From: Haliotis rufescens
Lineage: Eukaryota
NCBI RefSeq assembly: GCF_023055435.1
Contig: NW_025963835.1
Location: 22,134,001 to 22,198,000 of the forward strand
Direction of reading: 5' to 3'
Length of the DNA: 64,000 nucleotides
Shown piece by piece: positions 2,347-63,820 of this stretch. Under the pieces are notes generated by a model. The model saw only the letters and a list, made by a program, of their open reading frames with translations. It was not told the origin of the DNA and searched no databases. A program made the translations under genes and the position numbers. How positions within the stretch are numbered: position 1 is the stretch's first letter; each line of letters begins with the position of its first letter.

Positions 2347-3520
2347 ATGTCGGATCTTGTCTCAGTTGCTGCGATCAAGGATCTTCTGACAGAGTGCCCA
2401 ATATGTATAGAACACTTTGATGACGCAACACGAATTCCTCGTCGTATGCCATGTTGCGTACAGTCCATATGTCAGCCCTGTCTGGAAAGCTACAGTGGAG
2501 GTGCTGCAACCCTATCCTGCCCCATGTGTCGACGGCGACATAATCTGCCTGGTGGGGTGAAATCTCTGCCCAAAGAGACTGTCATCCTGAAGACTCTGGA
2601 CTACCTCAAGATCCAGAAAGGTCTCCATCTGCCATGTACAGATTGCCCTGACAAGGAAATAGCTGTAGCTCAGTGTGACAACTGTGGAACATTTTTATGT
2701 TCCATTTGCTTAAGTGCCCATAAACGGAATACGGTATCAAAGACCCACACTATAAATACATTTGATGAAATGAAGGGCCGACCTCTACAGAGTTTTCGTC
2801 GTCTACATCAGTGTAGTCAGCACCAACAACCTGTACAGTTCTACTGCTACACTTGTGACAAAGTCGTCTGTGTGTCCTGCACTGTAGTAGATCACAAAGA
2901 AGGGAAGGGACACAACGTCGTGTCCGTGAATGAAGCACACCAAGGAAAGGCGAAGTCCATAAATGATGTTTTAGGAAAGATAGAAGAGAAGACAAAGAGA
3001 CTGAGCGAAACGGAGTCAGCCCTTCAAAAGAAGATAGAGAACATCAAATTGTCAATGAAGGTAGCAAGAGATGATATCAATAAAATCTTTGACAACCTGA
3101 AGGATAGGCTGAATCAAAGAAGAACAATCCTTCTATCAGATGTTGAGGGGAAATCTGCTGAGAATCTGAAGGTTACAGAGGAGGCCTTGGATTCGACAAG
3201 ACTACTGCTGACTAAAGTGAAATCTTCTTCCGAATACATGCGACAGATGCGCAACAAAGCTGACAAGGTAGAAGATCTTCAAGTAATGGGATCATCTAAG
3301 GCATCTTTGAACTCCATGTTGAAGGAGTCACCACAGGAAATACCCTTTGACAGGACTGGAGTCAGCTTTGTTCAAGCAAACGTACAACATCTGCAGAATA
3401 CTATCAATGTGGCAGGAATGGTCAGATCAGTCACGTTCTCCCCAACAGAGAGGCCGAATGGTATCCCAGATACTGCAGTACACAACGTCATCACACTGGA
3501 ACCTGCAGAGTTCCCTACAG
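2347..3520 (+). CDS. TRIM copy A, coding exon 1: RING, B-box1, B-box2, coiled coil
   Basis: Acceptor ttttgccag just before ACATC-ATG(2347). RING CPIC..CC..CQPC..CPMC; B-box1 CTDC..CDNC..CSIC..H..H; B-box2 CSQH..CYTC..CVSC..H..H; then a heptad-rich helix. Phase-1 donor ACAG|gtaggt at 3520. Confidence 0.92.
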
Positions 3521-9700: not shown

Positions 9701-10172
9701 ACATGGCAGAAAATATGAAAAGGTGGCAATAAAAGCTTTTGAAAAGTCAAGTGGTTTCAAAACCTCACCATGTGGCATGTTTGTGTCAGATGTTCATCCA
9801 TTTCTCGCAGCTACACCAGATTCACTTCTCGGTGATGATACTACCATTGAAGTGAAATGTCCATTTGCATCTAAAGACCGTCTAATCTCTGAGATAACTG
9901 TTCCCTATTTGAAGGTATCTGAGGGAAAACTTACCCTTGACAAAAGCAAGCCATATTTCTTTCAATTGCAAAGGCAGCTCTACTGTACTGGTAGAAAACA
10001 GTGCATTTGTATTGTATACACGATGAAGGATTTGAAATATTTTACTGTATCTCGAGATGACCATTTCATTGAATCTATGGTTGAAAAACTTGTGGCATTT
10101 ATGACACCTTTTTTCAAAAAGGCACTACTTGACAAATTCTATTTCAGAGATTATGACAGGTATTCCTGGTAA
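6709..10172 (+). pseudogene. ISL2EU ORF2: SAP - SWIM Zn finger - YqaJ (lambda-exonuclease-like); exons 6709-6803 and 8751-10172; frameshift near 9015
   Basis: Exon 1 WKLPKLKTEPKARGARVSGRKIDLIER splices in phase 2 to LESYDRN. SWIM CECAAG..CKH. YqaJ motifs RISSSNF, HGRKYE, ATPDSL, IEVKCP, YFFQLQ. Confidence 0.85.
8065..8212. repeat. 37-bp tandem repeat (4 units) with internal hairpin GTGTGAA-AGG-TTCACAC; degenerate units at 7665-7760
   Basis: Units start at 8065, 8102, 8139 and 8176. Confidence 0.9.
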
Positions 10173-12167
10173 ATTTCAGTTACTGCTGATACTCATGTGT
10201 CAATGGTCATCAGCCCTATAAACAAGAAAGACAGAATTGTAGTCTCAATGTTTAATGCTGAACATATTATATTCTGCATATATGGACATTCACAAACAAA
10301 AAGTTATGAAAAAACTTGCAGGGCTCCATTTAAGGATGATATTTCACCAGATGCATGTTGACGTGAAAAGAGTTGCATCAGACAAAACCAGGTTGAACTC
10401 TGGTCCCATACATTGATGCATTCACTTGTGTAAATAAATACAATCTCAGATGTTTATTAAGACATTTAGTACTTACTGTTACAGTACTATGTGACAATGG
10501 CAACCATCTCTTAATCACTCCAGTAGTTATAAGTTGGATAATCTAAATATCACAATGTACACACTGGTCCCATACATGGATGCATTCACTAGTCTAAATA
10601 AATACAATCTCAGATGTCAGTTCGTACTTACTGTTACAGTACTATATGACCAGGCACCTCATTATCAACTACTTGAAAGAAAAAATGGTCTTTAAAAAAA
10701 ATAAATCTAAATATGTATGTGAATCATTAATTGCCTGTTTTTAAATTTGATGTGATGCTATAATCAACTGACATCATTGCTGACTGGCTAGGTTTGAGCA
10801 CAACCACCAGTGGCTTAGTTAATGACATAAATCCTGCTGGGGTATCGTGCAGGAAGCAGAGGCACGGTAAGTCCCCATGATCCCCGGGTTTGGTTTCTGA
10901 TGGCCTATAACCCGTGTTTTAAAACTGTATAAATGATATTGTTATGTCCAAATGTGTATGAAAAAATGTTTTTAAATATACCTTTGCATTCATGAGTAAA
11001 TTGTGTATATCAACTTGGTCTCGTCGCTATATGGCTGAAATAGTATTGATGTGACATTAACTTTTAACTCCTTTTGTGACGATTGCAACCATCTGTTAAG
11101 TACTCCAGTAGTTAATAGTTGGAAGATCTAAATATAGATGAAGCTACAGTGCAATACATAATCACAATTCAGTGTCCATACTCATAAATATCATCACTGC
11201 TTGAAGCATACTCCTTCAGCTCTATATCTGAGGAATTACAACTGTCATGTGATTATTATCTGCAGCTGAACTGTTTGAGGGAATGATAAAAAAACATTGT
11301 CATTGACTTCTTTCTTGTCATGATTGCCTTTTATAACATCTGAGAGAGCTGAAGCAACAGCACTAAGATGTGCCAAATATCTGGACCGGTCTAGCTGCTG
11401 CCAGTATCATATGAAGAATACACAGCCATGGGACACAATAAATTACAATTTGTTTCTCAGTAAACATGTATCCATTGAAAAAATAATCGATATATGATCC
11501 AGAAATATACACTTCAACTTATTCAGATTTTAAGTTCGTGAAATAAAAGTAACCAGTATTTGGGTTTAATCCAAATTGCTGCCATGGAAAACAGGAAAGG
11601 GCACCAGTTCAACTTGTGTTTGATACATGTGCAAAGTTTCATAATAACATATGAAACAGTTTCCGAATTATGCTCGGACAAGAAATGTGTCTCTCCCACT
11701 TTGTGGCAGGGGATAATGTAACAGTACGCACCAAACAATGTCAACATTCTTAAATTCATGTTACTGATGTCATAAATTTAAAACAAACTCAGTGAGTGAG
11801 ATGGGTTTAACACCACATTGAACAGGAAGTTTAGCATTACATTATCATAATCTCTAATACTAACACATTTATGTTTGTACCTTGACAAAAGAGTATGATT
11901 GATTGTGGCTGCACAAATGGTAAATTTGCTTCAAACTTGCTTTTTGACCACAGATTCCCATTCTAGTCTCAACATGATACATAATCGATAACATGTTACA
12001 TTCAACTTTATCCTCATGAATATTTAGCAACAATTATCTTTAATCATGTAGCAAACGCAAATAACAGGCCTTTTTGAAAGAAATTAGAAACAAATCTCCA
12101 TACTCTGCGTCTGACTAACGTCCGCCTGGAATGAAAGATATTTTTAATAATTTGCTAACCAATATGA

Positions 12168-14748
12168 TTAGCAAGTAGAGGGAACAATGCACTTTTTGAA
12201 AGAACAAAGCATGAAGCAAACCGTGGTTATTTCTGTGGCTAATTTGGTTTCTGAACTGTTAAGAGGTTCAGTAAGTATTTTGAATGTTTTTGCCAGACCA
12301 ATAATACGTTCAATGTGAACTCTTTTGCTTGATATTTTCCTATCACGCATAACAGTCTTGCCAGACATACGGTTTTTCTTTGAGAAGAATGTTGGCATAT
12401 TAATGGTAACATCTTTTGGTGCAAAAATATCTTGTACGTTGAAACCTTTATCGGCCATAATACTATCTCCTGGGTCACACATCACTGTCAAACCACTACG
12501 CTCTACTATTTGACGATCACTTGTGGAGCCACCATACGCAGGAGACACGATGCGCAGGAGACACATACGACACAAGACCACCTGGTGTGGATCCAACAAG
12601 TATTTTGATAGTATTTCGATTTTTATACGTTGAGTAGGTAGACTGCTGAGCTATGGGGCGTTTTGGTTTCTGGATAGGGCATTCAGTACCATCAATGATA
12701 ATTCGTGTGGATGGAAATTTGGATTTGAAATCAGAAGGACAAAAATAATGCACTAAGTCTCGTTCTGGCCAGTTATCAAGCTCACTCCACTGTCTATACA
12801 TAAAATTTACCCAGGTGATCCATACATTTAATACAGTTTTCTCTGAAATTCCAAAATGAAGACCAAGTTCAAAGTTAGTCTTATGTCGGCGCAGTTTCAT
12901 AAGTGTTAAAAGCAATTGATTTTCCACACTGTTGTCATACTGTCAACTTTGCTGTACAAATAATTTAGGTGATATGCACACGGACCCAAACTTGCAAGTA
13001 CAAAGGTGAAGTCTGTATAGTTTGACAGTCCTGTATAAAACAAAATTGCTGCAGCATTAAACATAATACTTTGTAATGAAAGCATTGGAAATTTGTCCGT
13101 CTGAGCTGATGTACTTTCATATTCAACCTCTGCACTATCTGCAGAACAAATGTTTAAGTCGGTATTCATGTCATCAAACTCAACACTGTCAATTATTTCC
13201 TCCCCAGCTACCTCACTCATATCACATTCAATATCACAATCTGTATCCATTGCTTTAAATGTCCTCTTTTGGCTCTCACGTCTTTCAATGCGGGATTTCC
13301 GTAATCCCCCATCGGCCTCAAGTGCGTTGGCTGATGCAGTCCAGGGAAAGATTGATGGTACAGCATCTGGTTTTCTCTGTTTCCTCAGAGGTGTACACCC
13401 TGGGGAAAACAGCAGTAGATTATTATTTTCCAAACAGATATTGTGCAATCTTTTTACTACCAGTTGTGAGATAGCTTTTTATGATTAGATTTAAGTTAAT
13501 TTGTAGGGAAAGAAAAAAATTCTATGGGCACGATATGTTTTGTCACATTATGAACATAATAGTGATACACATCAATACATTAGAAAAGTAAACAAACATT
13601 TAAATTAAGGAAAATTATGATATAAATTAGCTGACAATTTTCGTAGATATAGTCTCAACATTACATACATCTAATGCCTGATACAGAGAAGTGTCTTCAA
13701 GTTCAACACGTACACATGACACTTTTCTGACAAATACACATCAAAAGTGAACAAACATGAACCTGTATTCTTGAATCATCTGTGCCTCATCTCTGTGGAA
13801 AACAAGCACCTGCAGGAAAATGTAACATGACGCATTAAAGGCAAAAACGTCAAATATGTGTTGACATTCCTGGTAATCATCAATTCAACAAATTAAAGAA
13901 GAAAACTAAGAAGGGTTATGGTCAAACATCAACAACTTCATCAACGGGAATATAATGGTGGTAAACAGGGTTTTACCTTAATTAACTGGGTATGCACTAG
14001 ACCCCTAGTAATTGATTTCAAAGGCCCTTGCATGAAATATATGAGGGTCAAACCTAAACATCACCATGATCACTGACTGGCAAAAAAATGGCTGCTATAG
14101 TAAGGCCTAAATGACACATTATTTCTATCTTGGTTTTAAAAAAACAATGAAATATACTCATAGGTTCACATTCAAACACACACAAACGTGATTACATTAG
14201 AATTAGCCAATACTCAAATTTACTCGCCTACTCTGACAGGAGGGAACTAAAATTATTGTGAAAAAAATCACACACTTCGAAGTTTTAAGAATCTTTACTC
14301 AATTTAACTCAATGACAAAATCAAACTATCTGTGAAAATAAGTGTGTCCCGCGGGACGGAACATATTCTATTTTGTCTGCGTCCATTCTTCACATTTCTG
14401 CATACTGGATACACATTTCTGAGTCACGTAAAACCCTCTTCGTAATTTCAATGCAAGAAAATAAAACAAATATAATTGGCATGCACGTTAATTAAATCTG
14501 CCAACGAATAGAAACATAACAAGTTACCCAAATATCTTACCATAACTAGTTACAGCAATGAAATCAGACGGTCTGAAGTGGGAATGACACACAACACTGT
14601 GAGGTGACAGTTTCCACATCTTGCCTTGGTTTGATTCGTCGCTCCTCCGAATAGCAATCAACCATCGTTTCAGCAACATGGGTTCTCTCGGAAACGACAA
14701 ACCACCTCGATTGCAGCATCCCGGGACACAGCAGCACGTCGAAGGCAT
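12168..14748 (-). pseudogene. ISL2EU transposase: THAP - HTH_Tnp_4 - DDE_Tnp_4 (Harbinger-like); exons 14748-14541 and 13399-12168; two frameshifts
   Basis: THAP CCVPGC..FP..W..VCHSHF spliced in phase 1 to ..DAVPSIFPW. HTH NQLLLTLMKLR..ELGLHFGISE. Catalytic IIDGTE, MADKGF, RVHIERIIG. Frameshifts near 12930 and 12550 (16-nt insertion). Confidence 0.88.
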
Positions 14749-16430
14749 CGTAAATACTTCGTTGTAGTTGTTGGTCGTGCAAATATCTATGAACCGCGTA
14801 ATATACCGGAAGTACGCGCAGGACCGTAGCGTTTGGCGCCATCTTTTGGCGAAGTAGTAAAGGGGCATAACTGAGGAATGTTGGCCATACTATCACCAAT
14901 GTTCTGCTCGTGCAAACGTAACCAAATCCATAAATGTCAAGTAAATGTTTAATATGAGTTGCCCAAGTAATTCTATCACATTCATCCAGCTCCTTCATTG
15001 TGAATAACATTGTCGGGGATATCTGTCATCATTCATTCTAATTGGTTTATACCAGCATTTAATAGTCTTCATATTATAATCCATTATAATTTCCATAAAC
15101 CGAACACAAATAAGGCCGTAGTTGCATTAATGCGCTGAACAATAAACTAATTTTGTTTGTTGTTCTTTTGTGTTAAAGATTAAAAAGACACCCTGTAAAG
15201 TCATACCTTCAACGTACTTATTTAGAAGAATTGACTTCATATGTAGCCTCAGGTACAAATATGCAAATATTTCAGTGTACACGTAATTGACACTTACGTT
15301 TGTGCGGATGTGTTACATTTATGAACATAAACGAAAAGACATAAAGACTGTTCCCTGAATACATACTGCAAGTATTGATCGATAACAATAATATATAGTT
15401 ATTTAATATTTCGACAAACAGACAGCTCATAATCTCTCAATGATAGTGTTTACTTTCACAGATATAGATAGTGAAGCCTAATTCGTTGAGGTCACAAATC
15501 ATAATTAATGAGGATATCATACTACATAAAAAGGAAGTAATAACGAAATGGATGGGCGTATCACACATGTGAATTAGTCCCCAGATTCAAGCATTCATGA
15601 CTCATGGTGTGCCATTAATAATCAAGTGCCAGCATATATGATGAAAACTGAAATTTGATACATGTTTGTTTGACGTCATGACTTGTTTTATGTCTTTGGA
15701 GATGTGGCATTGAGACAAGACGACAGTGGTATATTGATAAATATTATTATATATTTCATCAACTTTCGTTCAACTGAAATAAAACAACCTGGATGTGTAA
15801 AACAGAATTTGAAACTTTTTCGGCAACATTAAATTACGACTATATCATGTAAGTAATGTCTTTGAAAAAACAAGTTCGTTTATGTTAATTTCATAACATG
15901 CGTAATTGTTATATATAATTAGACATTAATATAATTACATGCAAATTTGTTTCTAAAAAGCCTATTGTTAATATCGGACGTATGTGTTTAATTAGAATGT
16001 GTTTATTCTCTTCAATTTGTCTCTGTATTTTACATTTTTTAAGAATAAAATATGATTAATTTTGTTATTTAAGCATTGACGTGCATGCACCGACGTTTAT
16101 ACAGTTTGACCCTTGCTCTATGTAAGCCCATCCTCACACAAAGTGTCAAATTGAATTCTTATCATTCTTTTATTTCACTATTTTATACCTCGAAGGATGT
16201 GTACACATCTTCAAATAGTAGGTCATGTTAACACTGGCCACCGTAAACCAACCAGCTGCATCTTGGAGAAATAGTTTCTCAAAAGAAGTGAGATGAGCGT
16301 ATGTATGCTCAAAATGTTCCACAGTAACATCGTTTGTAGTTTGGTTACAACATACATTTATAAATGTAAAGGGTATTAACGTCGCTTTCCAGATTATTGT
16401 ACTGAAAAAGCTACGTGCGTGCATTTATGC

Positions 16431-17262: not shown

Positions 17263-17304
17263 TGATGGCGATGGACCGGAGCATCTGTGACCAGGAGATA
17301 ACAT
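17263..17304 (+). CDS. TRIM copy A, 42-nt microexon (VMAMDRSICDQEIT)
   Basis: tttcag|...|gtaaga; symmetric phase 1-1, open frame, conserved in B, C and D. Confidence 0.8.
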
Positions 17305-17891: not shown

Positions 17892-18523
17892 GCCCGACTC
17901 TGGAATGGGACTCAAGCACTGCTCATAACTATATTGACGTGTCTGAATGTGTAATCACAAACACCACCTCAGCCGCCCCTTCTCCTGACACAGGATGTCG
18001 GATACAAAATATCTATTCATGTCTGGCATCAAGGCCTTTAATGGTTAAAAACTGTCAAGCCCAGCGATGCATGTATCGCGTAAAGTTTCGGGTTTGTGTA
18101 AAGGAATTGATAGAAGATAAGAAACTTATACAAGAGATTGCCCTGACCCCCACCCCTGTAGATGCTGCCTTGAATCAACTCACTGGACTGAGTGTACGTG
18201 TTTCTACATGCCCCAACCACAAGTAGCAGCTGTGTCTCTGTGTGGGCTATAATAGCACCCTCCTCACTGATCGCCCTCTCATTCAGAACAGAGTTGGACA
18301 ATCTATTGACCTACAACTGTGTTTTCTAATGGATGGGGCTAATGACAAAATATTAGTTATTGATGCCGGTGATAACACAGTGTACACCACCGTCACAGAT
18401 GTTGCTTTTGACAGACCAATGTGGGTCATGATGTATGTTGGTAATCCCGCAACATCAGATGGAAGAGGAGAACTGATTACAGGCCACAACATCACAGGAA
18501 CCTTCGCCAACTACAATCATTAG
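17892..18523 (+). pseudogene. TRIM copy A, last exon: divergent PRY/SPRY (B30.2)-like domain with premature stop at 18224-18226
   Basis: Acceptor ttccgacag; same 632-nt length as the B and C last exons; CAG(Q) of B is TAG here; ORFs 17834-18226 and 18242-18523 are in the same frame. Confidence 0.85.
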
Positions 18524-22559: not shown

Positions 22560-24673
22560 AAGATAATAGAACTTCAGGACAGAAGACGGATCCTTGTCAG
22601 ACATTGAAGGCTTTTTTAGCAATGGTTTTAAACTCACTAACGAGGCCGTAGAGTCAACTAAACAACTGCTAAACAAGGTAACGTCTTCTTTGGACAACCA
22701 CACAGCAGATGAGGAGTAGAGCTGACCAGACATCTACAAGTTACGACATCATCGGCTTCTTCTTTCAAAAGGATGTTGCAGGAGTCTCACATTGAGAAAC
22801 AATATACGAGGACAGGCGTAGGCTTTGTACCTGCCAACCTGACCCACCTTTCCTCCGCAATCCAGGGAGCAGGACTGATAAGGTCAGTCACGTACTTCCC
22901 AACACAGAGGCCGGGATATGTACCAGGGGCTGACAGATACATTGCAATCACACTGACACCTGCAGAATTTCAAAAGGGTAAATTAATTTTTATTATGTAC
23001 ATGTATGTAAAAATATCTATAAAATGTTATTGTCGACATGAGGTAGCTGTGGTTCGACAGTTTGTGATGACTACTGTCCCACGTCTGCTTATAATGACTT
23101 AAGTTTATAACTAAATGTAAACGGTTGGATATATTCATTATTATAGTGTGTTTGGGTATGTTGTAGTGAAACTAACATTTAGTTTTAAATAGATAAAGGT
23201 ATATCATAATCTTTAGTTCGACAGTTGGTCTATTTCATTTCTTAGTTACATTGTAATCTGTTTAAGTCGCTGATGTGGACAAGACGATTTCCAGTGGAGA
23301 TGAAGCCATTTCATGTGAGATGTCATGTATTTAAGCTCCAACTTATCTTACTCATGTGCCCATCAACATAAGGGGCACCGCTTGACCTGTGATGTAAGGC
23401 TCCTGTGCGGATTTCCGTAGACGGTTATGCCAAAGTCTGTAGATGATTGGTTTGAATCAAAATTGAACCTTGACTATGACTCTTTGTTTGTCTACATCAT
23501 ACGCATCCTCATCGGTTTCACAAGCACCAGATGCTTGCCGTAAGAGGCGACTAACGAGATCGGGTAGTCAGGCTCGCTGACTTGTTTTCTGTTTGTCATA
23601 ATATCCCAATTGCGCAGATCGATGCTGGTCCAAACGCGAATATTTACAGACCGCCTTCATATAACTGGCGGCGTTAAATAACAAACAGACAAAAAATCCC
23701 AAGCTACAGATAGTCGTGGAAGTTCGATGGATAGATGAAGGACATTAAAAAAAACCCATATAACTGTTCATATGATTTGCTTTGTCTTGTACTATATATT
23801 TCGTTGAAATGAAATGTCACTTTTTTTACTTGAAGGAATAATACATGGGAGGTGGAAAATACATATTTCGTCTTGTATCATTTTAATAAAAACATTCTCA
23901 GTTATGAGGCGACTGTCAACTTGAATGGGTGTTATGTTATACTGATTCAATAATGTGTATTTGTGAATGAGACTTACAATGAATGTGTTTTGTGTTATTA
24001 GTTCGTCTCTTGTTTCCTCCCTAGGTCCGCACCTTGAATGGCACTGCAGTACAGCGAGTGACGACATCACTGTATCTGATACTTTGGTAACAAATGAAAA
24101 GCCCAAGACTCCGCCCAAAGACATAGAATGTCGAAAAAGGTCGTGGAGACGTCTGTTGACATCAAGACCTTTGGTTATCAGAGGTGGAAGCCGAGAGATG
24201 TTTCTGGTGAAAGTCAGCTTCTCTTTGAAAAAAGGGTCACTGAGAAAAGAAGCATGGTGTTTGAGACAGCAATGATTGCCAACCCCGCAGATACTTGCTG
24301 GAACCAATCAACTGGACTGAGTGTACGTATCATAGGATGTCCAAAGCATAAGCACCAGCTTTGTCTCTGGGTGAGGTTTGATGGCAAACTCCTCTCTGAT
24401 ATACCTATTGTTTGCAATCAAATTGGTAAGGCAGGTGCCTTACATCTAGACACTCTACTGGGCGGTAGGAGCAGTAAGATTTATGTTGTTGACATTGGCA
24501 ACACTACAGTGATTCAGTCTGTGACTGACACTGTGTGTGAAAGAACATTCTGGGTCATGGTGTATCTAGATGCATCCCAAGATTCAAACATGACGTGTGA
24601 ACTAATATCAGGTCAAAACCTTACACTATCAGAAGGAATGACCCAGTTGTTATCTCTGAAGGGAAATGACTAG
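22560..24673 (+). pseudogene. TRIM copy D: 5'-truncated divergent pseudogene (exon-1 tail to 22977, microexon 23267-23314, last exon 24025-24673)
   Basis: RTGVGFVPANL..AGLIRSVTYFPTQRP..ITLTPAEF matches the exon-1 ends of A, B and E. RING and B-boxes are missing. Frameshifts at ~22590-22740 and in the A-run near 24230. Last exon reads PHLEW..TGLSVRIIGCPKHKHQLC..FWVMVY. Confidence 0.85.
23533..23692 (+). mobile_element. SINE family 2 (partial)
   Basis: Core and tail present. Confidence 0.7.
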
Positions 24674-29690: not shown

Positions 29691-30864
29691 ATGTCGGATC
29701 TTGTCTCAGTTGCTGCGATCAAGGATCTTCTGACAGAGTGCCCAATATGTACAGAACACTTTGATGACGCAAAACGAATTCCCCGTCGTATGCCATGTTG
29801 TGTACAGTCCATATGTCAGCCCTGTCTAGAAACCTGCAGTGGAGGTGCTGCAACCCTATCCTGCCCCATGTGTCGACAGCGACATAATCTGCCTGGTGGG
29901 GTGAAATCTCTGCCCAAAGAGACTGTCATCCTGAAGACTCTGGACTACCTCAAGATCCAGAAAGGTCTCCATCTGCCATGTACAGATTGCCCTGACAAGG
30001 AAACAGCTGTAGCCCAGTGTGACAACTGTGGAACATTTTTATGTTCCATTTGCTTAAGTGCCCATAAACGGAATACGGTATCAAAGACCCACACTATAAA
30101 TACCTTTGATGAAATGAAGGGCCGACCTGTGCAGAGTTTTCGTCGTCTACATCAGTGCAGTCAGCACCAACAACCTCTACAGTTCTACTGCTACACTTGT
30201 GACAAGGTCGTATGTGTGTCCTGCACTGTAGTAGATCACAAAGAAGGGAAGGGGCACAACGTCGTGTCTGTGGATGAAGCACACCAAGGAAAGGCGAAGT
30301 CCACAAATGATGTTTTAGGAAAGATAGAAGAGAAGACAAAGAGACTGAGCGAAACGGAGTCAGCCCTTCAAAAGAAGATAGAGAACATCAAATTGTCAAT
30401 GAAGGTAGCACGAGATGATATCAACAAAATCTTTGACAATCTGATCGATGGGCTGAATCAAAGAAGAACAATCCTTCTATCAGATGTTGAGGGGAAATCT
30501 GCTAAGAATCTGAAGCTAACAGAGGAGGCCTTGGATTCGACAAGACTACTGCTGAGTAAAGTGAAGTCTTCTTCCGAATACATGCGACAGATGCGCAGCA
30601 AAGCTGACAAGGTGGAAGATCTACAAGTAATGGGGTCTTCTGAGGCCTCTTTGAACTCCATGTTGAAGGAGTCACCACAGGAAATACCCTTTGACAGGAC
30701 CGGAGTAATTTTTGTTCAAGCAAACGTAAAACATCTTCAGGATACTATCAAGGTGGCAGGAATGGTCAGATCAGTTACGTTCTCCCCAACAGAGAGGCCG
30801 AATGTTGTGCCAGATACTGCAGTATACAACGCCATCACACTGGAACCTGCAGAGTTTCCTACAG
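29691..30864 (+). CDS. TRIM copy B, coding exon 1 (RBCC); intact gene 29691-30864 + 39634-39675 + 40241-40872 = 615 aa
   Basis: About 94% aa identical to the A exon; ag acceptor before ATG; donor ACAG|gtaggt; 1174+42+632 = 1848 nt, open throughout. Confidence 0.92.
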
Positions 30865-39633: not shown

Positions 39634-39675
39634 TGATGGAGATGGACCGGAGCATCTGTGACCAGGAGATAACAT
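39634..39675 (+). CDS. TRIM copy B, 42-nt microexon (VMEMDRSICDQEIT)
   Basis: tttcag|...|gtaaga; phase 1-1; conserved across paralogues. Confidence 0.82.
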
Positions 39676-40240: not shown

Positions 40241-40872
40241 GCCCGACTCTGGAATGGGACTCAAGCACTGCTGATAACACTATTGACGTGTCTGGATGTG
40301 TAATCACAAACACCACCTTAGCCGTCCCTTCTCCTGACACAGGATGTCGGATACAAAATATCACTTCATGTCTGGCATCCAGGCCTTTAATGGTTAAAAA
40401 ATGCCAAGGCCAGCGATGCATGTTTCGCGTAAAGTTTCGGGTTTGTGTAAAGGAATTGATACAAGATAATAAACTTATACAAGAGATTGCCCTGACCCCC
40501 ACCCCTGTAGATGCTGTCTGTTATCAAGTCACCGGACTGAGTGTACGTGTTGTTACATGCCCCAACCACAAGCAGCAGCTGTGTCTCTGTGTAGTCTGTA
40601 ATAACACCCTCTTCACTGATCGCCCTCTCATTCAGAACAGAGTTGGACAATCTATTGACCTACAACTGTGTTTTCTAATGGATGGGGCTAATGACAAAAT
40701 ATTAGTTATTGATGCCGGTGATAACAAAGTGTACACCACCGTCACAGATGTTGCTTTTGACAGACCCATGTGGGTCATGATGTATGTTGGTTATCCCGCA
40801 ATATCAGATGTAAGAGGAGAACTGATTACAGGCCACAACATCACAGGAACCTTCGCAAACTACAATCATTAG
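40241..40872 (+). CDS. TRIM copy B, last exon: divergent PRY/SPRY (B30.2)-like domain
   Basis: Acceptor cttcccacag. LEWDSSTADNTIDVS resembles the PRY start LxLDPxTAxxxLxLS. FLMDGANDKILVID..VYTTV..VAFDRPMWVMM resembles the SPRY end VFLDYExGxLSFY..IYTF..FxxPLYP. Confidence 0.85.
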
Positions 40873-52374: not shown

Positions 52375-53416
52375 CTATCATGTTGGAACAGCTCCCCCTG
52401 GCGGTCCAAAGTTGGGAGGAGGTGATGACGCAGAATTTGGTCTATGTATTGGTTTGCTGTAAGATTGCCCTGGACAACCACTAACTGTGATCTATCCGTG
52501 TAGGATATGGCTCCCCACACCATGACACTCCCACACCAAATCGGTGCACCTGTCGAACGCAGTTCGGCGCAAAACGTTCATGTCGACGTCGGTATACACG
52601 CTGTCTTCCATTCCGTCGTTGAAGAAGAAAACGTGACTCAACGCTGAACCAAACGCGTCGCCAGTTCCTGAGATCCCATGCCTGTACTCTGTTGCACCAC
52701 CGGACACGTCGTTGACGGTGTAGACGTGGCAAGACAGGTCCAACTTTTGGTCGTCTCACTCGAATTCCCACTTACCTCAGACGATTTCTGATGGTTTGGT
52801 CGGAAATTCTTCCCACATCAGGCACTTGTCCTTCAGTGTCCGTTGCTGTAGCAAATCGATTCCGAATGTGATGTAACCGGATGTACCGATCCTGAGCAGG
52901 GGTGGTCACTCTTGGTCTTCCACTTCTGTGATGATCTTGAGTCGAATTAGTGCTGGTATATCGATCCCATAATCGAGATATGGTGCTTTGGTGAATGTTG
53001 AAGTGTCTTGCAACGGCAGACTGGGACTCCCTTGCTTCCAAACGTCCAATGGCGATATTTCGGTCAGCTGCAGTTAATCTTGGCATTTTACGATCTCCGT
53101 TCACGTCAGAAAATTCGTAGTGAACTGTTGAATTTTGTACGGTCTTTTATAGTCAGTGTCTCTACTATTGTTTCCAACACTTTGCACGTGCATTGTGCTG
53201 AAAACGTTTTCTGAAAGCAATTTCCATGCATCCTTTGCATTTTTGCTGATAAACGTTTACAAAAAAACACATTTTGAATTGTGCTTGCGCGCAGTGCACA
53301 ACAAACATGACACGATTAACGGGAAGCAAACATAAGAATTGTCTTTATGACGATTGCTTGGAAAAAAATCTAATTGGAATTCTCAAAACACCTATGCGTT
53401 TCTTTTTTGAAGAGTG
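52375..53416 (-). mobile_element. 3'-truncated Tc1 element (transposase ATG at 53086, frameshifted)
   Basis: TA|CACTCTTCAAAAAAGAAACGCA terminus. MPRL..VARHFNIHQSTISRL..RSGRPRVTT, WFSVESRF, MVWGAIS, FQHD, then truncated. Confidence 0.85.
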
Positions 53417-56400
53417 TATTTTATACAAATAGGGCATCATATCATATACTGTTTGGAGATAAAAGTTGTATCACTCTAACACCTGGAACTGTTTGTAATA
53501 TTGTTTACTTTATATATTCTACGTGCATGAGGACCATAGTTAAGCAGTACAGAATGAATGAAAGTGTCTCAGAATCTCTGCTCATATGGATTGCACATTC
53601 CTGAACCTCTGTCTCTCCGACACATATGAATAAATAGAGAAAGGAACTCAAGTCTAGAATGATTTGGCCAGTCCTAAATGCCTGAGCCCTGGGCCTGATT
53701 AATAAACATTGTTCTAGGTGCTATTTGGATTTTATTTTACCTATTTATTTTACAAGCATGATAACTCTTTGTTTCTTGGACAACCTGGAATCTTATCAGG
53801 GTTTCTGAAATAAATAAAATATAGTTGTATCTTGTAGTTAACCACCTTATGCCATGCGCAGAGATTGCTTTGCTCTTGCATATAACAAGTAGGGAAAGAT
53901 ATATTGTATTAGTATGGAGCTTGGTGACAAAAGGTTTTTACTGTGTTGGGTATGAAAGTAATAGCAAAGACATGTCAATGTTTCGATCAGGGCTACTGTG
54001 CATCACTGAATGTTTCGGAGATGGGCGAGTTGGGTTGACTCAGTAATTCGCGTAAATTTCGATCTGTCCGAAGTCGAGGCTTGCAAATACAGTACAGCAC
54101 AATCTTCAAAGACACATAAACTACATGTTATATACCTGATGTGCAGATTGTGAGTTAAACATCGTATCACGCAATGACAGCCGAGACAGCGATGCGCTCG
54201 TTAGACGTCAACTAGTTTAGCGGAAGATAGTGTCACGTGCATACATAAGCCACGCCCACTCACGAATATTGTAGATTTAAGACCATTGTAGGTTTAAGGG
54301 CACAACATACGTATGATATTTAATTATTTTGGCATTTGCATACAAATGATAAAGTTTATATTTATAACGGCAGTTTCCTCTTTGAAAGAGACTATAATAC
54401 AATTAAGCTATAACATTGTAAAACAATGTTTTATTCTTTTTATTCATGACAACTTGCCGTTGACATTACAACTTGCTAATTAGAATCGTGCAAGGCATTT
54501 TTGGTGTGTCCTTTAGGGTCCGACCATTTGATTTGATTTGTATCGAATAAAACATTGCTCGAAAAAACCCTAAAATGCATCATACTGTTTGAATAAAATA
54601 CACTTGTTTGCCACAAAGAAACATTGTTGCAAAGTGTTTAATAAAAAATATTCAGGGCTCATTGCTTTATTTAGAAATGGGCGGTCCCTTCCACAAGCAA
54701 AGATGACATGTATGGCTAATGTCATTCCCACCAGAAGCGTGACATCTTAAAACTGTAAGAATAAAATAGATATGGAGTACATTGACACGCATATAAGTGT
54801 GCTAGAGTTCTGACCTTTGTCATTGTGATTTCCCATTAGATGTTTTGCAGGTAACCAGGAGTATTTGTTCGAATCCCATATTCACCCCAATAAATTGCTC
54901 TTGGTTTGTCTGCACCATATTCAAGCTCGTGAGTTTCTACACTGTTACTTTAAACGTTCCTCCCACATTATGCTGACATGTCCTTATATCACTGAAATAT
55001 TGTTTAAAGCAGACTAAAGCCCAACACCACTCAGGTAATCATCCGGGGCGAAATAAACTATTAGAATATCGCTTGTTTACCCACTGCACAGGGGTTTTAC
55101 TTGAGGTAAAACATGTGAAATCCCGAATCTGTTCTTGTCTCTTATCAACAACTGTATAAAACGTGTATACTACATTGTAACAGACGTATGGGTTGATGAC
55201 GTGTCAATATGTATGTGTACGGGTGTGTATATGTGTCTACTCTTAGAAGCAGATCATATAGAGTTTCCTCTTTGTGGATATTTGGGTTGTCATTGTTTCC
55301 CAATTATGCCTTTGATCATTGAATGCTTAACAACGACAGTACATACACATTAGGACTACCTCATTACAGATTCTTTTTCAATTTCATATAACATAATCGT
55401 GATGATTTTCCTTTGCCAGACATCATGTGGGATCTTGTCTCAGTTGCTGAGATCAAGGATCATCTGACCGAGTGTCCAATATGTAAAGAACACTTTGATG
55501 AGTCGACACGAATTCCACGTCGTATGCCGTGCTGTGTACAGTCCTTATGTCAACCATGTCTAGAAACCTGCAGTAGAGGCACAACAGTCTTAGACTGCCC
55601 CATGTGTCGACATCGACATTACCTTACAGGCGGTGTTAAATCTCTTCCCAAAGAGACTGTCATCCTGAAGTTTCTGGACTACCTCAAGATCCAGAAAGGT
55701 CTCCATCTTCCATGTTCAGATTGTCCTGACAAGGAAACGGCTGTAGCCCAGTGTGACAACTGTGGAACATTTTTATGTTCCATCTGCCTAAATGCTCACA
55801 AACGAAATATGGTAACAAAAGCCCACACAATAAATACCTTCCACGAGATGAAGGGCCGACCTGTACAGAGTTTCCGTCGTGTACATCAGTGTAGTCACCA
55901 CCAACAACCTCTACAGTTCTACTGTCACACTTGTGACAAGGTTGTCTGTGTGTCCTGCACTGTAGTAGATCACGATAAAGGGAAGGGGCACAACGTCCTG
56001 TCCGTGGATGAAGCACACAAAGAAAAGATAAAATCCACTGATGAAGTTTTGGTCAAGATGGAGGAAAAGACGAAAAGACTGAGCAAAACAGAGTCAGATC
56101 TTAACATGAAGATAGAGGACTGTCAAAGCGCGTATCAAGAGATGATATCAACAGAGTCTTTGACAACTTGATCGATGCTCTGAAGCAAAGACAAAAAATC
56201 CTTCTGTCTGATGTTGAGGAGAAATCAGCTAAAAGTCTCAAGCTAACAGAGCAGGCGCTGGATGCAACAAGACTACTGCTGAGGAATGCGAGGTCATCTA
56301 TAGAATACACGCGACAGATGAGCAGCACAGCTGACAGGATAGAATACATGTTGAAGGAGGAGTCACCAAAGGAAATACCCTTCGTCATGACTGGAGTTAA

Positions 56401-56768
56401 TTTTGTCCAAGCAAATGTAAAACATCTTCAGGATACTATCAAGGTGGCAGGAATGGTCAGATCAGTCACGTTCTCCCCAACGGAGACGTCGCATGGTGTG
56501 GAAGATTCTGCAGCATACACCGCTATCATTGTGGAACCAGCCGAGTTACCTTCAGGTAGGTAGTACTAAATAATATATTTCTCATGGAAATAACAGATAC
56601 GATAGACAGACAGTATGAAGTAAGTGTACGAAGCGTATAAAAGGGAAATCACTCAACATAACTGCAATACAACATGTTAAACACGCGTGATTTTACTTTA
56701 CTGATTTCACTGTAAAATATTGACAAGGAGTTCTTTACATTTATAAATTCGAGCAATATTTGGTAAAG

Positions 56769-57040
56769 TTGGTTGGTTGGTTGGTTGGTTGTTTAACGCC
56801 GCACTCAGCAATATTCCAGCTATATGACGGTGGTCTGTAAATAATCGAGTCTGGGCCAGACAATCCAGTGATTAATTTCATGAGCATTGATCAAAGCAAT
56901 TGAGATCGACGACATGCATCAACCAAGTCAGCGAGCCTGACCACCCGATCCCGTTAGTCGCCTCTTACGACAAGCAGAGTCACCTTTTACGGCAAGCATG
57001 GGTCGTTGAAGACCTATTCTAGCCCGGATCTTCACGGGTC
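56769..57040 (-). mobile_element. SINE family 2 (GTCGTAAGAGGCGAC core, no tRNA head), full length
   Basis: 13-bp TSD atatttggtaaag; (CAAC)n tail; 3' end shared with family 1. Confidence 0.85.
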
Positions 57041-58243
57041 ATATTTGGTAAAGACCTATTTTAGAACAATAGATTTTTGGTTCTCATGTAAATTAAATAT
57101 CATACTCATCCTCAATTTCACAACTGTCACAATGTGTACATACACAATGAAACACCTGAACAACAGATCCTTTTGTTATAAGATCCAACATGGGCAAAAG
57201 CAGTAGGGAAAAAAGGTCTATCCCAAATTTTCTTTTCAAGGTGTCATCCCAACCTTTTAACATTAAACAACAATCTATCCCCAACAACCTACCCAACAGC
57301 TTACAACTCTATATTGGCACTGGACATGCATACTGTAACCTCAGCTCCCCAAAGTATGGCATTTACTACATTTTCATTTCACAAATAATATTATTGGAGA
57401 CTTGTTTCCATCAAACAATATTGTAGCTGGCTCGAAATATAAATGGCTTTTGGTCTTGAGCAATTTATAAATGGGAATAAAAACATTTGATGCTGGTGTA
57501 GCCTACAAGGCAGGATGAAAAACGCTATACCCAGGTATTTGTAGTAAGATACTACAATTTTCAGTCGTATGTACATCGAATTTATTGTATGTTTCTGATG
57601 CGTTCGAAAAAGATCCACCCGTCGTCCCAAGACGGTTTTCTTTGTTTGCTAAATTACATGATTTCCTACTTTTGTACAACGTTCCCGTCTCAAGACTTAA
57701 TTACGTGACGCTATTCCAAAGAAAATGTAGTATTGATTGTTGTCATGTCTTTCTATGTGGAAATGTTATACTATGTGCCACCCGCAGTGATAAATCGGTA
57801 TTAAGGTTTGGAGTTCTGATGCATCTGAACAAGTGAGAAATGTCAAAACAGGGATTTGCATCATTCTTGTCACTGATGCGTCAATTTTGGAAATGTTATC
57901 AACGTCAAATGTCTACCATACATGTTTTTGAAAACTTTACTGAGGCCTTGAATTTTGTAACCTTGATCAAACAACTTTTGAGCAAGAGTCCTATGACTCT
58001 TTTTGAAATCGTCAAAGAACAGCATGCTCGATTGCACCTCAAAACAATGGAAACCCCAAAGACCGGACCCGCTGGATTCAGCTTGATATCAAGAGGAAAT
58101 TGACTACTGGAAAGTTGAAGTCATCACTCTAGTTATACGGTCTGGTGAATTTGTTTGGCTATTCTGAATCTTTATTCATAAATATAAATATGAAACTGAT
58201 GAGGCGGTATCATTTGTCTCTTTTATTTCTACTTCATGTTGGT

Positions 58244-58381
58244 TGGTTGGTTGGTTTGTTGTTTTACGCCGCGCTCAGCAATATTCCAGTTATATCACGG
58301 CGGTCTGTAAATAATCGAGAATAGACCAGACAATCCAGTGATTGATATCATGAGCATCGATCCACGCAAATGGGATCGATG
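58244..58381 (-). mobile_element. SINE family 2, 5'-truncated
   Basis: TSD acttcatgttggt. Confidence 0.75.
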
Positions 58382-59024
58382 ACTTCATGTTGGTAAATCA
58401 GTGGAAGGGAATTGGCTATTTAGCCATAATGGAATTATATGAGATCAAACGTATTATCCAAATTACCTAGTTTTGACTTTGCCAAGCAGGGCAGAAATTC
58501 TGATCCATATGTAAAAAGAACAGATAAGTAAGAAGGGGAGCAAAACTGATGCCCAAGGTGATGACTTCTTTCTTGCCTAAATATCTACGGCAAATATTCA
58601 GATGCATCAGAATGACACGACCCCGTCCAGTGAAGTTTGTACTTCTGTTTCATCCCGCGATACTGTTATAACGGGTAATGTATGCAATCAAAATGGTAAG
58701 AGCAGGCAGTCCGTGTACATGGGACACACATAAAGATTAATATCTTGTTTCAGTGATCGAGATGGACCGGAAGATGTCTGACCAGGAGATAACATGTAAG
58801 ATCTGCGCCCTTGACGACATGATGTTACAAGATATTTTTCATTGGTTTTGTATCTGTCAGTTGATTTCGAGAGGTTACGACCGCTTTCGAGATCTGATCT
58901 TTGTGCTTACCTTTTGATAGTTTAGTACAGAAGTTTTATTAGTGGTCGCGTTAGCAATGTTGCATATCATGCATGTGTTGCCTGATCTTTGAATGTTATG
59001 TAATAGAAGTATGTAGGAGAAGAA

Positions 59025-59393
59025 AGCCTCCTTGATGTAGTGGATAAAAACGTCCGTCCGGTGAGCGGAATGTCGGAGGTTCGATCCCCAGTCACGTCAT
59101 ACCAAAAGACATTAAAATATGGTACTTGTTGTTACCCTACCTGGCGCCCGGCACTAAGGGAACAAAATTAGGACTGGTCGTCTCGGAGTCAGCATACTAA
59201 GTGGGGTATCCATGTTAAAATTGTGGCATGGTATCTCAGTTGGCTAGCACTTCGGCAGTCGTCCTCACTAGTACAAGTAGCCACACACATACAAACACAC
59301 ACTTACATACACACCCTCGCGCGCCCGGGCATGCATGTAATACGTGTAATAATCCTGAAGTTGTATATATTAAACCCAACTTAACCACCTCAC
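59025..59393 (+). mobile_element. tRNA-derived SINE, family 4
   Basis: Aligns with 47943-48285; flanked by gagaagaa. Confidence 0.75.
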
Positions 59394-59463
59394 CAGAGAG
59401 AAGAAGAACGCCTTGGCTTTAACACTTCTAACTTAATACATAATAGATCAATGATAGCTCATA

Positions 59464-59747
59464 GTGAGTGAGTGAGTGAGTTGGGTTTAACGCCGCTTTT
59501 AACATTATTCCAGTTATATCACGGCGTGTCAGCTTAATGTGGGAGGAAAGCCCGAAGTGATACAGGTCTCAGACGTTTACCACTTCGGTGAAACCCACGA
59601 GCACGGGTATGGTGCTGACATACCTAGAAACATAATCGGGGCGAATCGGGATTCGAACCCACAATCATAAGTTTCTGTCGTGCCCAAGGGACGCAACTCT
59701 GCACAGCGAATCGCGGCGCCTTAGACGACTGGGACACCCGTGCCCCC
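59464..59747 (-). mobile_element. tRNA-derived SINE, family 3 (long A-to-B-box spacer), full length
   Basis: A box GTGTCCCAGTCGTCTAAGG, B box GGTTCGAATCC, (ACTC)n tail, imperfect 13-bp TSD atga(t/c)agct(c/t)ata. Confidence 0.85.
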
Positions 59748-60619
59748 ATGACAGCTTATAACTTTCATTTGGTAGATTGACTAAATTGTCGGTAAAAAAC
59801 GTATTAAGTGATATATATGTTAGCTACAAGAAGACATGTTGGTACTCATTACGAATGTTTTTTTTATCACAGGCCCGACTCTGGAATGGGACACAAACAC
59901 TGCAAAATGCATCATTGACGTATCTGAATGTGTAATCACAAACACACGACCGGCTGTTATTTCTCCGAACACAGGATGTCGGATACGAAATGCCTGATCA
60001 TGTCTAGCGTCCAGACCTTTGGTGGTCCGAAACAGTCCTGGGCAGCGTTGCATGTATGGAATAAAGTTGCGGTTATCTATAAAGACATTGGTAGGAAGTA
60101 ATAAACTTATACAAGAGATAGCCCTGACCTCCTCTCCTGAAGATGCTGTCCGGCCGCAACACATTGGACTGAGTGTATATGTTGCAACATGCTCCACCCA
60201 CAACCAACAGCTGTGTCTTCGGGTAAAGTACAATAAAAAGCTCCTCAATCACATTCCACTCACTGAGAACAGAGTTGGACAGTCTTATGACCTTCAGCTA
60301 TACTTTCTACTGGATGGAGCTAGTGACAAAATATTAGTTGTTAATGCCATTGACAATTCAGTGTACACCACTGTTACAGATGTAGAATTTGACAGACCGC
60401 TGTGGGTTATGATGTATGTTTGTGATCCTACAAAAGCGGTTGTAAGAGGAGAACTGATATCCGGCCACAAAATCCAAGGAACCTTTGCCAACTTTAATCT
60501 GTAGAATCTGTAGAACATATTAACATTTTAACAATAGATTTTTGTAAATAAAGTGTTTGAATCTGAATTTCCCACACAGTACTGTCAGTGATCATGAGCA
60601 CGCGATTTGTTTGGAAATG

Positions 60620-62243: not shown

Positions 62244-63420
62244 ATGTCTGACTCTCTCTCATCGTCACATGTCCAAAGTTATCTCACAGAGTGTCCAGTA
62301 TGTTCTGAACAATTTGATGATGCCGCGCGCCTTCCCCGCCGTATGTCGTGTTGTGTACAGTGTATCTGTCAGCCATGTTTACAGCAGATCTACAATGAAG
62401 AAGACAAGACGTTGCTCTGCCCTGTCAGTCACCACAAGCACGAACTTCATAATGGAGTTACCTCTCTTCCGACTGAGCCTATCACATCGAAGATACTAGA
62501 CTACCAGAAAATCCAAAGAAATGAGCGGGTGGTATGTACAGATTGCCCAAGCAGCAACGAGGCAATAGCACGTTGTGAAGAATGCTGTGTATTTTTATGC
62601 AAGGAATGCAGGATAACCCATGATCAACACAGATTGTCACGACATCACAGAACTCATACATTTGAGGAGATTAAAGGTCAGCCGATCCAGGCCTTGAGAC
62701 GACTGCACGAATGCGGCCATCACCCACAGCGTCAGGAATACTTCTGCAATACCTGCGAGAAGATCATATGTGTTTCCTGCACTGTAGAGGAGCATCGAGA
62801 AGGAGCGGGACACATGTTTGTACCTGTGGATAAAGCACACCAAGAAAAATCAATACATGTTGATAACATGTTAAATCAACTTGACGAAAAGGCTGTAGAA
62901 CTGAGTCAAACAGAACAAGAATTGTTACACAAAGTCGACAACATGCACGTGTCAGCACTTGCAGCGAGACAGGACATCAACAAATGCTTTGAGAAGATGT
63001 TAGAGGAGTTGCAACAAAGGAAAGCAACTCTTTTGTCAGACGTTGAGGAGAGAACCGGCGCTGATGTAAAGCTGACCGAAGAGATCCTCCAGTCAACCAG
63101 AGAGCTGCTGGCGAAGGTGAGATCCTCAACAGAGTACATTAGACAGATGAGAAGCATGGCAGATAACATCGAGGATCTTCATCTGATGCTTTCCTCTACA
63201 CCCTCACTGAATGGCATACTAGCTGAGGAGCCAAAGAAAGTGGAATTTGTAAGCAGGGGAACATCCTTTGTCCCAGCCAATCTGAATAATCTCGCGTCCA
63301 CTATCAAGGTGACAGGCATGGTCAGGTCTGTCACATACACGCCAACCCAGAGGCCAAAATATGTACCACAGAAGACGATATATAACACCATCACACTGGA
63401 GCCAGCTGAGGTACCTGCAG
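62244..63420 (+). CDS. TRIM copy E (more divergent paralogue), coding exon 1; downstream exons lie outside the window
   Basis: Acceptor tttcgcag, ATG 62244, RING/B-box1/B-box2/coiled coil, ends ITLEPAEVPA G|gtcggt (phase 1, homologous donor). Confidence 0.88.
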
Positions 63421-63820
63421 GTCGGTTTCTGAAATAGTTCAAATATTTCAATACCTTTGTGACCCTATCTTAAACTGGTTGTTCGATTCTGTTGTTTTAA
63501 GCTTGTTTATTTAATTTGCTGTTATTGCTTTTATGTATATTCCAGCAAAATCATAGCAATATGTACATAACCGACTGAAAATGGTTGGCCTTTTAGCGAT
63601 ATCTCATGCAGTTTTAATGTCCTCTCCCAGCAATCATTGATTACTTGGGACGAATTCTTGTCCCTCAATTCACACTAGAGAACGTCATATATGACCATGG
63701 AATTAACTGAACATATGCCATATGTATCCCAATGTCGCAAGTAGTAAGCAGTTCACACACTACGATCACCCGGACCCAAGAAAGTCACTAAACCGTACCT
63801 CATTGATCCAATCTAGTCAC

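Follow-up and report, generated by a model that had tools for sequence, protein, structure and literature searches.

What drives the last exon of a tandemly repeated TRIM gene in the red abalone, Haliotis rufescens, to exchange its amino acids so freely, and is it selection or merely a lack of constraint? The question arises from two young copies, here called genes A and B, found in a window of 64,000 nucleotides (C57:22134001-22198000; host genome 1.33 Gb), i.e., the whole stretch of DNA analysed in this work, which is contained in a tandem TRIM array. The exons of both genes, those of the neighbouring paralogues C and D, and the codons discussed below are listed in Table 1.

Table 1. Features of the window, with positions counted from its first letter; codons are numbered along the last exon of gene B.
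Feature	Position	Strand	Remarks
Gene A exon 1 (RBCC)	2347..3520	+	
Gene A linker exon, 42 nt	17263..17304	+	
Gene A last exon	17892..18523	+	Private nonsense codon at 18224-18226
Gene B exon 1	29691..30864	+	RING variant, two B-boxes, coiled coil; Pfam B-box and TRIM_CC, weak RING
Gene B linker exon, 42 nt, phase 1-1	39634..39675	+	AG/GT ends; joined to last exon in RNA-like contigs
Gene B last exon	40241..40872	+	Divergent PRY-SPRY/B30.2; 209 codons and stop; AG acceptor, open frame
Hot codons 11-13	40273..40281	+	Behind PRY 'DxxTA' motif; 4 and 3 amino acids; codon 11 posterior 0.83-0.87
Variable codons 39-41	40357..40365	+	End of v1-equivalent loop; aligned to BTN3A W-H-Y; codons 40-42 selected in C523
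Hot codons 92-96	40516..40530	+	Loop 86-98; 92, 93 and 96 with 5 amino acids each, posterior 0.98-1.0
Hot codons 102, 104	40546..40554	+	Alternate positions, strand 99-105; 4 amino acids each; 102 selected in both arrays
Hot codons 118, 123	40594..40611	+	Strands 112-119 and 122-131
Hot codons 184, 187, 190	40792..40812	+	v4-equivalent loop; 4-codon in-frame deletion in one paralogue
Gene C, older paralogue	55425..60504	+	Broken: frame break in exon 1; TGA in last exon at 59995
Gene D exon 1 (RBCC), more distant paralogue	62244..63437	+	Gene extends past window end

The translation of the three exons of gene B exactly matches the RefSeq proteins XP_048252266.1/XP_048252275.1 (615 aa, Haliotis rufescens), which bear the name 'TRIM33-like', and the RefSeq model of gene A (516 aa) terminates at the nonsense codon. 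The joint between the 42-nt exon and the last exon is carried by contigs of all three RNA-like runs (3/3), and a fourth, DNA-like run reads into the intron; these run types are a program's guess, none being recorded as RNA, and the contigs possibly come from paralogues or related species. In an initial contig search, SINE repeats dominated the matches and no splice joint was seen. With regard to gene C, the last exons of its sister copies L016-L018 are open.

The N-terminal half of the gene B protein is of the RBCC type. Its RING (window 29691-29900), for which the Pfam zf-RING_2 match (E 9e-5) stays below the cut-off, aligns to the RINGs of TRIM28 and TRIM2, but has Gln where these have the zinc-binding His, and one more Cys next to ligand 3; the Gln and a Cys-Cys pair ahead of it are conserved in both arrays examined. 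Two B-box stretches (zf-B_box E 5.5e-12) and, in the expected place, a coiled coil (TRIM_CC E 4e-4, under the curated cut-off) were recognised, and the nearest solved structures of this region are those of TRIM28, 2, 3 and 32.

As the first-pass annotation had supposed, the last exon codes for a B30.2-type domain, whose identity as a divergent PRY-SPRY/B30.2 domain is established by profile comparison and structure prediction. Pfam PRY/SPRY matched none of the paralogue domains (0/21 at E<=1), and neither phmmer nor an abalone-only profile found a match for the last exon in the PDB. A profile search retrieved 74 representatives at E<=0.001, and all of those looked up (10/10) were molluscs; among 46 relatives scanned, 8 gave weak PRY or SPRY matches, many carried RING/B-box and some filamin or CARD domains. 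When the deeper profile (A2) was compared with the PDB, the best 60 of 91 matches were all B30.2 chains, with MID1 at E 2.2e-8, and the best E value of profile A3 was 3e-11. The ESM neighbours of the last exon are SPRY domains (0.89-0.90), and the PRY motif as well as the G-x-x-LD / LYPVF motifs of B30.2 domains can be read in it. In the structure predicted with the deeper profile (pLDDT 90), the top 16 fold rows were B30.2/PRYSPRY, the PRYSPRY domains of TRIM25, TRIM16L and MID1 reaching Z 16.7-16.9 vs 13.1 for the best lectin. An L-type lectin had tied in a first model (pLDDT 75; 15.3 vs 14.5) and was ruled out by the pLDDT 90 model. Among the relatives, P0070 and P0082 combine a CARD with the same B30.2-like domain, in a layout resembling that of immune-signalling proteins, and P0082 is a red abalone protein bearing CARD and B-box.

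The last-exon protein has at least 105 matches in the genome, fragments counted. Thirteen last-exon copies sharing 83-100% identity lie within a 440-kb tandem array, and more arrays are present on C523, C615 and others, forming a multigene cluster with birth and death, as in finTRIM/TRIM5-like families. A single internal stop, that of gene A, occurs among all 13 copies. Two pairs of copies (L001 and L002, L009 and L010) belong to near-identical multi-gene blocks with 250-280 kb between them; gene B and its twin are identical over the last exon and have 5 differences in about 3,600 bases. Such blocks represent either a very recent segmental duplication or an uncollapsed haplotype. Two RefSeq proteins of about 1,020 aa, P0002 from red and P0003 from black abalone, harbour two RBCC modules and one B30.2-like domain, the additional RBCC module coming from an upstream orphan RBCC exon, through a real transcript or an annotation merge. 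Furthermore, a relic of a distant paralogue (window 22713-24673), comprising the end of an RBCC exon and a frameshifted last exon, recurs behind each A-type unit.

The first-pass annotation had drawn attention to the replacement changes between A and B, counting 24 replacements and one nonsense change against about six silent ones in the last exon, with four double-hit codons, and about 25 of either kind in the RBCC exon. An ungapped recount of the last exon (A, 17894-18523; B, 40243-40872) returned identical figures, namely, 24 replacement codons, 1 nonsense codon (codon 111, TAG in gene A) and 6 silent ones, with double hits at codons 13, 41, 93 and 104; among the 392 codons of the RBCC exon, 25 carry replacements and 24 silent changes. 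Expressed as nonsynonymous to synonymous changes, the ratio is 28:6 for the last exon and 26.5:27.5 for exon 1 (Fisher p=0.0016), and the contrast between the exons is above chance. To call the excess confined to the B30.2-like exon was slightly too strong, the RBCC exon being loosely constrained itself (omega 0.50).

The same annotation had read diversifying selection from this pair of genes, and here the recount falls short of it. The last exons differ by a pN of 0.059 and a pS of 0.040 (omega 1.5), which does not depart from neutrality (binomial p=0.25), and the flanking non-coding divergence between B and the intact sister of A (84/1515 = 0.055) equals the last-exon pN; weak constraint, not positive selection, is therefore all that the A/B pair can show, and the case for selection comes from the comparison across paralogues and from a second array. 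In addition, dS amounts to 0.107 in the RBCC exon vs 0.041 in the last exon, and the trees of the two exons disagree, so that they do not have one common history. The view that decay of gene A is insufficient as a cause proved right, since its last exon differs from that of its intact sister L003 by the stop base only. Gene C, formerly taken as the outgroup, is broken and a poor choice, and six closer lineages were substituted for it; they polarise the 24 replacements as 11 B-derived, 10 A-derived and 3 unclear, which upholds the changes on the B lineage.

Selection across the paralogues of this array was assessed by codon likelihood with a program written for the analysis (GY94-type, F3x4; naive empirical Bayes posteriors). 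For 10 last exons, i.e., with the identical twins L001 and L010 and the stop-bearing L006 left out, omega under M0 is 1.01, and M2a assigns 10.6% of codons an omega of 5.3 (2dL 38.9; M8a vs M8, 2dL 38.3), with posteriors >0.9 at codons 92, 93, 96, 102, 118, 123, 184, 187 and 190. In the 8 intact lineages that remain after L004 and L007 are also left out, about 11% of last-exon codons have an omega near 5.5 (2dL 42.5), and adding a double-hit term changes this little (2dL 39.5). Double-nucleotide mutation was rejected as the cause, its fitted rate going to zero under M2a. The RBCC control of 13 copies, from which the twin L031 and the frameshifted L053 were left out, gave an M0 omega of 0.50 and no significant result (M1a/M2a p=0.07, M8a/M8 p=0.20).

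The explanation that best withstands these data besides selection is relaxed constraint, in which redundant copies drift neutrally, and mutation-rate variation together with gene conversion gives patchy clusters resembling the work of selection; we regard it as unlikely as the whole cause. The exon-wide omega of the last exon in this clade is 1.0-1.06, and relaxed constraint does contribute to the replacement excess, since about half of the codons look neutral. Codon positions 1, 2 and 3 vary about equally (0.26, 0.26 and 0.24), much like the flanks (0.22-0.23), several copies are dead, and rate heterogeneity in the flanks is strong (alpha 0.39). When codon rate variation is included for the 8 lineages, 2dL is 8.6 (p=0.014) with the alpha of 0.39 taken from the flanks, a conservative test since this alpha applies to single nucleotides; with alpha left free, 2dL is 14.1 (p=0.0009).

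Recombination also bears on this explanation. The PHI test is positive at short range (p=0.03) but not at 100 nt (p=0.32). L014 (C57:20.26 Mb) is a distant, inverted paralogue located 1.5 Mb away. Over codons 121-140 (60-nt window), it shares 97% identity with B vs 78-88% for its sisters, a tract that probably results from gene conversion between clusters. In simulations of heavy recombination without selection, at a divergence somewhat below that observed, 30 of 44 replicates exceeded a 2dL of 5.99 (median 10, maximum 40.4 vs 42.5 observed). Since replicates free of selection mostly pass the nominal 5% level, the nominal p-values of the likelihood-ratio tests are inflated and untrustworthy.

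What argues against drift as a sufficient explanation is the tree-free evidence. Five amino acids are found at each of 5 codons out of 206, whereas the means of eight null models with flank-level rate variation (600 replicates each) are 0.1-1.0 (p<=0.005 in every one), and this five-state statistic cannot be inflated by recombination. The count of codons with at least four amino acids (11 of 206) is weaker (p 0.002-0.068 over the nulls). Five or more states occur at 5/206 codons vs 1/512 flanking triplets (p=0.009), and tree-free allele counts give an N:S of 119:33 in the last exon vs 101:83 in the RBCC exon (p=7e-6); the silent deficit in this array is not significant (33 vs a neutral expectation of about 41, p 0.10-0.14). 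Moreover, reading frames are kept, the 8 lineages having 0 internal frameshifts and 0 stops vs about 8.8-9 and 5.5 expected, these expectations being rough and the flank indel counts including alignment noise. The last-exon indels in these lineages are a deletion of 12 nt that preserves the frame and another that trims the final codons of L012. Positive selection concentrated in the B30.2 domain is thus supported in this array, in a form weakened by recombination and rate variation.

The second array, C523, is about 40% identical to B, shows the pattern again and likewise speaks against drift alone. Its 10 last exons (L065, with a stop, and the twin L068 left out) have an M0 omega of 1.51, and M2a assigns 13% of codons an omega of 9.6 (2dL 68). 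They contain 18 silent alleles vs 38-60 expected, i.e., half of the expectation or less, a deficit reached in 0/600 replicates in all 8 nulls; L067, L070 and L072 were also left out of the 7-lineage tests. The five-amino-acid count, consisting of 1 codon, is not significant in C523, and that of at least four amino acids has p up to 0.13. Its RBCC exons, without L054 (unparsed) and the frameshifted L086 and L087, have an M0 of 0.58 and a weak signal (p=0.027); L073-L077, too, were left out as unparsed. Per-site variability correlates between the two arrays (rho 0.31, p=1e-5) and also with that of three H. rubra copies (rho 0.27), and replacements in each array fall preferentially within the zones defined from its counterpart (p=2e-4 and 4e-4). 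The A/B replacements showed no enrichment in the C523-defined zones (9/24, p=0.21), and N:S is not raised within zones (p=0.15); the shared variable positions could partly stem from a shared lack of constraint. Between red and black abalone, differences number 11/205 in the last domain and 33/391 in the RBCC part, a comparison given no weight because orthology of the RBCC halves is improbable and the overlap of sites involves circular reasoning. A paralogue lineage lacking 4 residues of the last loop (L011:1501-2115, P0003) is common to both species, and is accordingly older than their split or was exchanged between them.

Where do the hot codons fall? The first-pass annotation had likened the pattern to that of B30.2 variable loops; the loops hold, and alternate strand positions have to be added to them. 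According to the secondary structure of the model, codon 26 lies with codons 39-41 in the v1-equivalent loop, 102/104 and 116/118 occupy alternate positions on two adjacent strands, 121-123 lie at the next hairpin and 184-190 in the last loop, and hardly any variation is seen within the clade in strands 15-22, 42-45 and 162-182. By comparison with the TRIM21 sequence, codons 13, 92-96, 102, 104 and 184 presumably correspond to W299, about L370/L371, W381, W383 and F450, respectively. The secondary-structure register and partial alignments fit a placement of the hot sites on the ligand face, the TRIM21 register of the middle region being presumptive, and the hot sites are predicted from the model to occupy loops and alternate strand positions of that inferred face. 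HMMER alignments put codons 39-41 on the BTN3A W-H-Y and codon 181, for which C523 shows 5 amino acids, on the Arg behind LYPVF. One report lists W350, H351 and R469 among the phosphoantigen-pocket residues of BTN3A (PMC4337483), and another W299, L370/L371, W381, W383 and F450 as Fc-pocket residues of TRIM21 (PMC4670481). Judged by alignment, codons 39-41/181 would match the pocket residues W350/H351/R469, with a numbering that we infer.

We consider it likely that genes such as B encode a B30.2-ended TRIM, in a recently amplified abalone array, and that a minority of its B30.2 codons, predicted to lie on the ligand face, has been diversified by selection, most likely for the recognition of variable molecules from intracellular pathogens. 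This reading builds on the observed gene structure, splicing, domain identity, array organisation and multi-state codon excess, and on replication in the second array. The finTRIM/TRIM5 analogy and the CARD-bearing relatives suggest a pathogen ligand for the B30.2 domain, and by analogy the array is likely the mollusc counterpart of TRIM5/finTRIM. Unequal crossing-over would have multiplied the unit by tandem duplication. The RBCC half, under moderate purifying selection, would provide coiled-coil dimerisation and a ubiquitin-ligase or scaffold output, and the B30.2 surface of each copy would confer a different specificity, with selection acting on one face. Exon-level shuffling and short conversion tracts would then recombine the variants, and copies losing their use would decay by birth and death, as A and C may exemplify. 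A wider proposal, which we hold possible but somewhat short of probable, is that molluscs independently built a TRIM5/finTRIM-style repertoire by coupling an RBCC of group-1 type, whose RING lacks the His, to a B30.2 domain missed by annotation; abalone would have around a hundred copies, and several of the arrays would vary one and the same ligand pocket and exchange their specificity exons among effector halves.

Abalone gamete proteins are known for their fast evolution, and selection might be real with a target other than a pathogen, such as a gamete protein, a fast-evolving host substrate or a transposon protein. The closest solved relatives of the RBCC half, TRIM28/2/3/32, are in keeping with such a target, as is the fact that our searches found no link to infection data. 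B30.2 domains are also described as binding host proteins and metabolites, e.g., Fc by TRIM21 and phosphoantigen by BTN3A1 (PMC4670481; PMC4337483). However, in fish and mammals the RBCC-B30.2 families that have expanded under positive selection have links to immunity (PMC2657112; PMC3137616), CARD fusions exist among the relatives, and birth and death in several arrays suits many shifting targets, which makes a non-pathogen target quite improbable. An origin of the excess in the decay of pseudogene A, in assembly errors or in uncollapsed haplotypes, suggested by the stop in A and by the near-identical twin of B, which could be an assembly duplicate, is largely refuted and very improbable, since A departs from intact L003 at the stop alone, 11/24 changes are B-derived, the tests used distinct lineages, and the variants are found again in other Haliotis proteins and in contigs from independent runs.

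Selection on a B30.2 ligand face, as preferred here, has close parallels. The teleost finTRIM (ftr), btr and hltr genes have the same RING-B1-B2-CC-B30.2 layout and tandem expansion, and likewise exhibit B30.2-focused positive selection, inter-copy recombination and a weaker RBCC signal (PMC2657112; PMC3137616). Unlike finTRIM, the abalone family occurs in a mollusc, with a B30.2 domain beyond the reach of Pfam PRY/SPRY, a RING without the canonical His and the whole RBCC on one exon; the solved structures closest to its N-terminal part are those of TRIM28/2/3/32, not of TRIM16/25, and its selected sites lie over v2/v4-like loops and strand faces, not mainly v1. The primate TRIM5alpha and TRIM22 (class IV, group 2) resemble it in their diversifying C-terminal B30.2 specificity module and in clustered lineage-specific copies with pseudogenes (PMC2533329). 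The same source states that group 2 TRIMs have B-box2 only and are absent in the invertebrates examined (PMC2533329), whereas the abalone family has two B-boxes. TRIM5alpha is a middling fold match to the abalone domain (Z 12.9), and the abalone family is not known to have a capsid target. MID1 is the best match by profile (E 2e-8), and the PRYSPRY domains of MID1, TRIM25 and TRIM16L are the best by fold, 157-164 residues superposing with an rmsd of 2.6-2.8 A, but identity is 10-17%, insertions are present in the beta5-beta6 and beta7-beta9 regions, and the COS/FN3 domains of MID1 are undetected in the abalone protein. Finally, unannotated TRIM-B30.2-like proteins of other molluscs (Solemya, Tegillarca, Mytilus, Argopecten, Gigantopelta) carry a homologous C-terminal domain behind RING/B-box, several of them differing from gene B by a filamin repeat or CARD.

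In PMC2533329, clustered fast-evolving TRIM-B30.2 genes are presented as a vertebrate trait. Invertebrate B30.2-bearing trim-like genes are noted in PMC3137616, and two in Aplysia in PMC9334734. A balancing-selection list for black abalone includes TRIM2-, TRIM3- and TRIM56-like entries (PMC13229213), with no tie to the array family established. Among the matches listed in a literature search that left most subscription journals uncovered, none concerned a TRIM-B30.2 family of abalone or other molluscs that had expanded and come under positive selection. The family has been hidden because RefSeq names its members TRIM33/45/71-like and Pfam detects no C-terminal domain. Although such an evolutionary pattern is familiar, its occurrence in this host group, in a domain that had escaped annotation and in more than one array is new. 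A large mollusc TRIM-B30.2 family would thereby bear the signature of an arms race, its loci and codons being candidates in the study of how abalone resist herpesvirus or withering syndrome, and the profile offers a means to find the family throughout molluscs.

Other elements of the window are of transposon origin. Intron 1 of gene A (window 9015-15025) contains, on the forward strand, a 385-codon open SWIM + YqaJ frame, which faces DDE_Tnp_4/HTH_Tnp_4 and THAP pieces on the reverse strand of the same interval; SWIM/YqaJ opposite DDE_Tnp_4 is an arrangement that we take to be an ISL2EU/PIF-Harbinger-like transposon layout. As the exon spacing is the same in all A-type copies (15.5-15.8 kb), this transposon is probably older than the A-type duplication. 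Relics of Tc1/mariner-like transposases are present at window 4657-5410, with an HTH_Tnp_Tc3_2 match, and at 52772-53146.
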